DNA of 64,000 nt from an uncultured bacterium (GCA_964482725.1 CAYZYT010000006.1:19777-83776); one strand, 5' to 3'. Shown: positions 8,845 to 8,912, counted from the stretch's first letter. A program made the numbers and translations. The notes: generated from the sequence alone by a model not told the origin.

Positions 8845-8912
8845 CCCTGCCCTGGCATCTATTTTATTTTTATGAATGGTTGCCAGGACGGGTCCCATTA
8901 ACCTTTGATTCT
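8845..8912 (-). repeat. Conserved ~65-bp intergenic element (copy 1). It overlaps the kdsB stop and lies about 30-90 nt upstream of the pyrG start.
   Basis: cctgccctggcatctattttatttttatgaatggttgccaggacgggtcccattaacctttgattc matches the copy at 36161-36225. Confidence 0.7.

Follow-up and report, generated by a model that had tools for sequence, protein, structure and literature searches.

A repeat at the 3' ends of kdsB and aroE

The DNA analysed here is a stretch of 64,000 nt from an uncultured bacterium (GCA_964482725.1, CAYZYT010000006.1:19777-83776), called the window hereafter. Two gene pairs in it, kdsB-pyrG and aroE-pilD, carry at their junctions a copy of the same short palindromic element, and a third copy lies between two other genes; all genes around the copies are on the minus strand. 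A preliminary description of this DNA had presented the element as a repeat of about 65 bp at 8845-8912 and 36161-36225, with a partial third copy at 12828-12886. Below, the window copies are designated W1, W2 and W3, those of the Candidatus Omnitrophota metagenome-assembled genome (MAG) JBAYVF01 are M1 to M3, and related loci and related proteins bear the prefixes L and P, respectively.

W1 is 83 nt long (8847..8929, minus strand). It was delimited from the sequence, a pattern match with 0 mismatches, a covariance model score of 97 bits and the comparison of filled and empty sites. The kdsB open reading frame (ORF, 8870..9820, minus strand) runs into it and ends there, at a TAA (8870..8872, minus strand) located in loop B, one of its two hairpin loops. 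Downstream of W1, aligning the window to L009 and L013, both empty at this site, uncovered the displaced ancestral 3' end of kdsB, AACCCCGTGAGGAATTAA (8819..8846, minus strand), which comprises NPVRN-stop and the ribosome-binding site of pyrG. The pyrG ATG is at 8816-8818 (minus strand).

W2 is exactly 84 nt long (36162..36245, minus strand; covariance model 91.6 bits). It is bounded by a 5-nt direct repeat, CAGGC (36244-36248 and 36160-36164, minus strand), a motif present once at the empty site of L017/L018, and because CAGGC is repeated at both edges the exact register of the insertion is ambiguous. The aroE ORF (36213..37148, minus strand) stops in W2 at a TAA in loop A (GGTTAAT; 36213..36215, minus strand). 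Downstream of W2 lies an untranslated relic of the ancestral aroE 3' end, GCGCTCAAAGGAAAAGGACGCTTGTCCCGTTAG (36129..36161, minus strand), which reads ALKGKGRLSR-stop; aroE of L017 ends in QALKEKKKLPR-stop. The pilD gene follows. The earlier observation that the kdsB and aroE stop codons fall inside the element is thus confirmed.

W3 (12800..12886, plus strand; covariance model 85 bits) has the opposite orientation to its two minus-strand flanking genes, as first described. It is not partial, however, but a complete copy of what we call the 'TC' subfamily. The inserted segment is 79 nt (12808-12886, plus strand), including one of the two copies of a perfect 8-nt direct repeat, GGACGGGC (12800-12807 and 12879-12886). 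The initial estimate of 65 bp was therefore too short for each of the three copies: the true length of the element is about 84 nt, and similarity spans about 90 nt across six aligned copies.

A repeat search of the window aligned 8846-8914 with 36161-36229 at 80% identity across 69 nt, and both sequences proved to be as originally quoted. The 30-nt pattern first proposed matched W1 and W2 only with 0 mismatches, for 0 expected from 100 dinucleotide-preserving shuffles. A 23-nt core, AAAGGTTAWYNGGACCNGYCCTG, matched all three copies without mismatch (8884-8906 and 36199-36221 on the minus strand, 12828-12850 on the plus strand), again with 0 expected from shuffles. In a pattern scan of species-representative genomes, three further copies were found in MAG JBAYVF01, on three contigs and at unrelated sites. 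A metagenome pattern scan returned the same three MAG contigs and two chance matches (L005, L007). A covariance model was built from W1-W3 and the three MAG copies; it recovers these six sources at 85-97 bits, and in about 212 kb of related sequence it identifies 14 distinct copies with scores of 38 bits or more. Other copies are present in L009, L016 and L017, at loci different from those of the window copies. With a looser pattern, seven matches were obtained in viral contigs, none of which fitted the covariance model, and blastn gave no match in plasmids. The family is known so far only from a group of related Candidatus Omnitrophota, and no description of elements of this kind in Omnitrophota was found in the full-text literature.

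The window itself holds three strong copies only, which might suggest chance similarity or a recent duplication at this locus. However, no match was expected from shuffled sequence, the flanks of W1 and W2 are unrelated, similarity stopping at the element boundaries, and copies occupy different loci on further contigs and in further genomes, so that such an origin is almost certainly wrong. Local duplication, a case already considered in the preliminary description, is excluded, since the flanks are not shared and other copies occupy non-orthologous sites in related genomes.

Filled and empty sites in related genomes

The relatives compared are syntenic Candidatus Omnitrophota MAGs, 80-88% identical to the window (for instance, contig L008 is syntenic with 15.8-29.1 kb of the window, at 80-86% nucleotide identity); searches with KdsB and AroE retrieved proteins of 75-90% identity. 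Presence or absence of the element was polymorphic at seven sites, six of them aligned and one, the pilD-aroC spacer, judged from gene spacing.

At the 3' end of kdsB, the element is present in the window, in L011/L012, where it was seen directly, and in two Logan assemblies with an identical KdsB protein (L019, L020). Since the same kdsB tail is found in these independent assemblies, W1 is not an assembly artefact. L010 has a decayed ortholog of W1 from which 42 internal nt have been deleted. L009, L013, L014 and L015 lack the element; in them, kdsB ends in RLQ(V/S)NPVRN-stop, 2-3 nt before the pyrG ATG; in the protein alignment, KdsB of relatives without W1 ends in RLQ(S/V/K)NP(V/I)RN. For W2, the window has an insertion of exactly 84 nt between two copies of CAGGC, and L017/L018 are empty, with one. 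The W3 site is empty in L009, L010 and L013, which contain a single GGACGGGC in place of the 79 nt and perfect repeat of the window.

Three of the other sites are inside genes and empty in the window. The GT9 glycosyltransferase gene (15760..16812, minus strand; empty site at 16257..16260) contains in the MAG an 84-nt in-frame copy, M1, and encodes a protein of 383 aa, versus 350 aa in the window, L009, L010 and L013. In kdsB, an 84-nt in-frame copy follows FFQGK in L009, and P0016, P0028, P0055 and P0064 have the same insert; the window, which is empty between FFQG and EQ (9157..9162, minus strand), and others do not. At the 5' end of aroE (empty site at 37141..37142, minus strand), the MAG (L016) carries 168 nt, consisting of an 84-nt copy with an 84-nt element of a second subfamily nested in its loop B. 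Many relatives have a single 28-residue insert at this place, and the window and L017 have none. Finally, the pilD-aroC spacer is filled in L017, and the two genes abut in the window and in L016. The MAG ortholog of W2 (L016, 11050-11070) shows nesting of another sort, a 20-nt hairpin, GCCTGCCTGCCGGTAGGCAG, being inserted in loop A as a micro-insertion.

Seven independent presence/absence polymorphisms among close relatives indicate that the element is mobile, rather than a conserved regulatory signal. We consider it quite probable that the three sites of the window are copies of a small, non-autonomous, palindromic mobile DNA element, representing a new family whose effect on genes resembles that of the Rickettsia palindromic elements (RPEs). 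The REP-like element envisaged at the outset was a good guess, as this is an interspersed palindromic repeat whose presence varies among close relatives.

As 84 is divisible by three and the sense strand has one open frame, PNS..SKVNG.SPGN..KEN..Q, intragenic insertions survive as additions of 28 residues. All full-length intragenic copies are 84 nt long, in sense orientation and in the same reading frame. This frame is free of stops in most copies of the 'AT' subfamily, and most other frames carry stops. The inserted peptides are RPHSLSEESKVNGTSPGNLFKKENGGQD in GT9, PNSLLKESKVNGASPGNLLGKENRSQGK in KdsB and PNSPSKSLKVNWASPGNLQSEKSRCQGK in AroE; their translation is presumed from the preservation of the frames. 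Where the element has inserted close to the end of a gene, as W1 in kdsB and W2 in aroE, it takes the place of the last codons and brings a new stop. W1 encodes the last 20 residues of the window KdsB (P0001), SQFSFKESKVNGTRPGNHS, and the tail SKVNGTRPGNHS, up to the stop, shares the frame of the intragenic inserts over that segment. The window AroE enters W2 in a different frame and stops at GGT-TAA, after the element-encoded tail AQCSIKKFKG. The same tail is found in P0135, P0136 and P0141, and the other AroE proteins end in LLQALKE.GK. A profile search with the doubled peptide retrieved two proteins only, and one further unrelated protein fragment carries the insert (P0121). An exhaustive search with the 31-aa W2 translation gave no match at E <= 0.001, the query being too short to reach significance in large databases.

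In an AlphaFold 2 (AF2) model of KdsB P0064, the enzyme fold is confident, with a predicted local distance difference test (pLDDT) of 85-96, and the insert (residues 162-195) is unstructured with a pLDDT below 50, as are the short stretches 12-14, 225-229 and 272-275. This is consistent with the insert forming a tolerated surface loop; the model lends weak support, because most alignment rows are gapped in the insert region.

Other small insertions were noticed in the same proteins. The FFQG/K loop of KdsB (window ~9160) is an insertion hot spot: at this position P0065 has an unrelated insert of 30-odd residues (..PLSSPPAGGRGQGEGV..), and P0002 and P0031 a 7-residue insert (TPCGTG). Almost exactly at the W1 insertion point (equivalent to window ~8840), KdsB P0005, P0017, P0018, P0026, P0031, P0034 and P0053 have an in-frame insert of about 13 residues, similar to LRAGRGDGSKTGA, between RL and the NPVRN tail. 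An internal insert of 16-17 residues in the window AroE (~36400-36480; ..THVAPRGRVSQKASCGS..) resembles another small in-frame insertion; it is shared by P0124, P0125, P0131, P0134 and P0145, shorter in P0148, and absent in P0135 of the MAG and in several others.

Hairpins, ends and a possible mode of movement

The canonical 84 nt consist of two tandem modules of about 42 nt, with one hairpin each. Both hairpins have a G+C-rich stem of 8-12 bp and an A/T-rich loop of about 24 nt. From 5' to 3', the order is a CAGG-like motif, hairpin A, a 3-nt link, hairpin B and a 3' RCAGG(S)C. Hairpin A has the form GGCCC-xxx...xxx'-GGACC, its loop finishing in AAAGGTTA, and hairpin B the form CCTGNCA...TGNCAGG, its loop opening with AACC. 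In W1 (minus strand), the arms are at 8925-8930 and 8892-8897 for hairpin A, with AAAGGTTA at 8899-8906 in loop A, and at 8881-8889 and 8849-8857 for hairpin B. The core was rightly called palindromic: a central palindrome, GGAC-CNG-GYCC, is present, and the element is quasi-palindromic around this centre, so that the reverse strand of every copy scores with the covariance model as well. As the conserved structure, one long foldback or a hairpin at the centre was rejected, being good in the 'TC' subfamily only, whereas hairpins A and B form in all copies.

RNAalifold gave hairpins A and B as the consensus fold. Their stems vary in sequence and stay paired (CCTGGCA/TGCCAGG, CCTGACA/TGTCAGG and CCTGCC/GGCAGG for hairpin B; CCCAAT/ATTGG, CCCAT/ATGGG and CCTGAT/ATCAGG for hairpin A). 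In the alignment fitted to the covariance model, standard pairing occurred in 92% of cells, against 75.7% when partners were shuffled among copies and at most 44% when they were slid, and both sides had changed at 13 of the 17 stem pairs. The covariation score was 0.535, versus 0.236 for shuffled partners, and none of 500 shuffles reached 0.535. The hairpin structure is under selection.

The 'AT' and 'TC' subfamilies differ at their ends. The former has no terminal inverted repeats (KCCCAAT... / ...GCCAGGR). In the 'TC' subfamily (W3, M2 and M3) the similarity of the stems makes inverted repeats of the ends, CCTGATCTCG / CGAGGACAGG. A second, weaker subfamily follows the identical two-hairpin plan with other stems and loops (ATAG-TCCCAAT-ACC...) and lacks AAAGGTTA; its hairpin modules resemble each other, which makes the element look like a tandem pair of ~42-nt modules. 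It occurs at MAG loci and twice in the window. One of these copies (55286..55381, plus strand; 27 bits, E 2e-5) reads ATAG-TCCCAAT...ATTGGGG-CTA-TCCCAAC...GTTGGGA-TAG. The other (60034..60127, minus strand; 32 bits, E 8e-7) lies between an ORF of 251 aa and infA, and has TAG in its 5' flank, as the stop of that ORF, and again at its 3' end. A weak two-hairpin match at 10699..10794, on both strands (~20 bits, E ~1e-3), is of uncertain membership. Elements of both subfamilies are adjacent or overlap within one spacer in L004 (1203-1460), L010 (14298-14428 and 17653-17833) and L017 (11983-12114), which suggests clustering, or arrays of hairpin modules.

Folding and position bear on the proposal that the repeat is a structured RNA or regulatory site at operon junctions. 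A cis-acting RNA that works on pyrG and pilD, be it an attenuator, a translational coupler or a hairpin for processing or stabilisation, would fit with W1 and W2 being sense-oriented just upstream of these genes, and with sense-strand folding better than shuffles (z = -2.2 to -2.6); hairpins of the REP type stabilise upstream mRNA. However, the antisense strand folds equally well or better (z = -2.6 to -4.0), and wobble pairs show no strand asymmetry. Intergenic copies have both orientations, W1, W2 and M3 being sense and W3, L010 14333, L013 14244, L017 11983 and L017 1600 antisense to flanking genes, and other copies are in-frame coding insertions. Relatives keep these operons with no element at the orthologous junctions, both where kdsB is 2-3 nt from pyrG and in an aroE-pilD spacer. 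Rfam gave no gathering-level match over the whole window, and an E-value search at W1 and W2 gave chance miRNA or hairpin matches only (E > 1). In a promoter and terminator scan of 8-14 kb, counts were no higher than in shuffles; no T-run terminator appeared, W1 gave no match, and the start of W3 is overlapped by a single weak promoter-like match. A role as structured RNA is thus very improbable, and the position before pyrG and pilD would need no regulatory function.

Two other known signals were tried and rejected. A sigma-54 promoter (GG-N10-GC; TGGCAC-N5-TTGCW), for which no fit had been found initially either, is not supported, as the GG is not conserved: other copies have TGACA or TGCCA where TGGCA would stand, the opposite arm changing in compensation, and there is no -12 TTGC. 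An integron attC site does not fit, with two hairpins instead of one, no GTTRRRY core on reading the sequences, and copies inside housekeeping ORFs.

The mutually complementary motifs AAAGGTT and AACC(W)TT show strict conservation in every main-family copy, and the stems vary. This could mark the AAAGGTTA...AACC inverted motif, or the central palindrome, as a binding site for a host nucleoid protein or regulator, possibly by exaptation; REP and ERIC elements are known to bind IHF and gyrase. However, the second subfamily lacks AAAGGTTA, the conservation may merely reflect recent common ancestry of the copies, and no such protein was identified. A binding site would also leave the positions in coding sequences and the insertion polymorphism unexplained, and we find it improbable as an account of the repeat.

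The ends share a short motif of 3-8 nt, usually CAG, otherwise CGG, CAA or CTG, in the main family, and (A)TAG in the second subfamily. It is found in the 5' flank, in the last bases of the element and, in a partly complementary version, between the hairpins; in W1 (minus strand) the flanking CAG is at 8930-8932 and the terminal one at 8847-8849. The 5' flank trinucleotide equals the last three bases of the element in 10 of 14 copies, though the trinucleotide differs between copies. Four filled/empty pairs (kdsB internal, W3, W2 and aroE 5') show that the 5' motif copy is pre-existing target sequence. The 3' copy is a conserved, base-paired part of hairpin B. Around W1, the outer sequences 8838-8846 and 8930-8937 are reverse complements (5' GCTTGC, 3' GCAAGC), and the 3' flank is longer than that of the empty site by 4-5 nt.

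The sharing of a motif by the flank and the end of the element cannot be told apart from a short target duplication. The element might then be a classical miniature inverted-repeat transposable element (MITE) moved by a DDE transposase, the flank repeat being a true target-site duplication of 3-8 bp at a CAG-like target. W3, with a perfect 8/8 repeat whose single copy pre-exists in relatives, agrees well with this, as do the 5-nt CAGGC of W2, the 8 of 9 matching flank positions of the kdsB internal copy and the inverted-repeat ends of the 'TC' subfamily. However, the ends of the 'AT' subfamily are not inverted repeats (5' KCCCAAT against YCCTGGC, the reverse complement of the 3' end), the apparent repeat ranges in length from 3 to 8 nt (4 in the nested copy), its 3' copy behaves as part of the element, being conserved across copies and paired with the element centre, and no parent insertion sequence was seen. 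We regard a DDE-moved MITE as possible, yet unlikely.

More probably, an enzyme acting in trans would move the element, recognising hairpins of single-stranded DNA instead of terminal inverted repeats. The best candidate would be a Y1/HUH transposase, of the IS200/IS605 TnpA type or of the REP-associated tyrosine transposase (RAYT) type, and insertion would occur just after a short motif matching the 3' end of the element itself. Such a peel-and-paste-like logic is suggested by the hairpins conserved in structure, the lack of terminal inverted repeats in the 'AT' subfamily and the flank motif mirrored at the end.

Several points weigh against a mobile element of this sort. The scan of 185,579 species genomes with the AAAGGTTAWYNGGACCNGYCCTG-type 23-nt core found one MAG only; the pattern was too strict, missing variants that have GGGCT or GGGGCC where it requires GGACC. 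The alignment behind the covariation counts was itself fitted to the covariance model, and translation of the inserts is deduced from the reading frames only. Queried with Y1 transposase and RAYT sequences, tblastn gave no significant match in 272 kb of related DNA, far too little sequence for a real test of the mobilising enzyme (a weak match beside M2 was inside an unrelated ORF of 926 aa), and no autonomous partner or parent insertion sequence was seen in these ~272 kb. The hairpin loops of about 24 nt far exceed in length the loops found at known IS200/IS605 ends or in REPs, and both orientations occur in one syntenic region, unlike what a strong lagging-strand bias would give. Lastly, a DDE enzyme could equally have made the flank repeat, as a true target-site duplication.

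A bolder extension of the hairpin-based mode of movement, which we hold to be speculative and rather unlikely, is that the element belongs to an undescribed 'codon-neutral' class, with exactly 28 codons, two hairpin modules and one stop-free frame. Its central motif, complementary to the flank/terminal motif, would be a built-in DNA guide for a trans-acting HUH transposase, and it would colonise essential genes across an Omnitrophota lineage and nest in its own copies. If so, new protein termini and surface loops would arise from it systematically, and it would be a second, independent invention of the RPE lifestyle of Rickettsia with a different architecture.

Neighbouring repeats and known systems

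Other repeats populate the region. Between W3 and a DUF3108-like gene, the window has a specific insertion of about 110 nt (12930-13045), absent in L009, L010 and L013; it is palindromic, ends in GTCATTCTGAAC...GCTCAGGATGAC, and is of the widespread 'GTCATCCTGAGC...GAAGGATC' repeat type. A family of short hairpin repeats, TTGTCATTCCCGCGAAAGCGGGGATCCAG and CTGGATCCCCGA...TTCGGGGATGAC, unrelated in sequence to the element studied here, occurs in both orientations at 13817-13880, 25385-25416, 30021-30052 and 30357-30385. Beside the kdsB-pyrG-kdsA-kdsD lipopolysaccharide core cluster, at least three GT9 (heptosyltransferase-like) genes are in tandem (14672-17755), a run syntenic in all relatives compared.

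Palindromic repeats that often colonise housekeeping proteins in frame have been regarded as largely a peculiarity of Rickettsia. The element shows this phenomenon in an uncultivated phylum, and KdsB, AroE and a GT9 glycosyltransferase each offer cleanly distinct filled and empty sites. A 2024 review of MITEs called such colonisation outside Rickettsia only 'conceivable' (PMC10969869). In proteins predicted from Omnitrophota, the element accounts for odd extensions at the C or N terminus and for inserts of 28 residues, and it cautions against taking conserved intergenic hairpins of this kind for regulatory RNAs. It is also a compact, well-bounded substrate (84 nt, two hairpins and a flank motif) for seeking the mobilising enzyme.

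RPEs insert in frame into unrelated housekeeping genes, adding a conserved peptide and keeping the ORF, and are found between genes as well; they measure about 150 bp (PMC10969869). Like them, the present element is a short, palindromic, interspersed repeat found in frame, in GT9, in KdsB (internally and at the C terminus) and in AroE (at the N and C termini). Unlike them, it resides in Omnitrophota, RPEs being from Alphaproteobacteria, it is about 84 nt long with two tandem hairpins versus one long palindrome, and one element is seen nested inside another. The likeness is an analogy and not membership, the host being an Omnitrophota.

IS200/IS605 elements have stem-loops at both ends, which are recognised in single-stranded DNA, and insert beside a transposon-adjacent motif (TAM), mirrored by a transposon-encoded motif (TEM) at the right end, with no duplication (PMC10055086). 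The palindrome-associated transposable elements (PATEs) of this type share with ours a stem-loop near each end, a structure kept while the stem sequence varies and, for the 'AT' subfamily, the lack of terminal inverted repeats; the left-flank motif resembling the terminal motif of the element recalls the TAM/TEM pair. In contrast, our element has loops of about 24 nt, motifs directly at the hairpin feet, a single central motif that could serve both hairpins, no evident strand bias and no TnpA found in the 272 kb.

Repetitive extragenic palindromic sequences (REPs) and bacterial interspersed mosaic elements (BIMEs) are G+C-rich imperfect palindromes with covarying stems, present in many dispersed copies and often at gene 3' ends. 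They are about 35 nt long and extragenic, with a GTAG-type tetranucleotide, whereas the Omnitrophota element is ~84 nt long, has two long-loop hairpins and is often intragenic; there is no GTAG in its main family and no RAYT was found by tblastn in the 272 kb.

ERIC, BOX, Correia, Coxiella QMITE and Anabaena MITE elements are likewise small, non-autonomous repeats, able to become fused to ORFs or to change the ends of genes (PMC10969869). They have terminal inverted repeats with defined target duplications (TA for Correia), or are modular, and share neither sequence nor the two-module 84-nt plan with our element. The Omnitrophota element falls outside every named family, having no apparent sequence relationship, another host phylum and two long-loop tandem hairpins, and lacking both GTAG and consistent inverted repeats. 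RPEs are closest to it in effect; in architecture and ends, PATEs of the IS200/IS605 type and REPs are. Small palindromic mobile repeats are ordinary; what stands out here is the in-frame colonisation of essential genes, the exact length of 28 codons, and the nesting.

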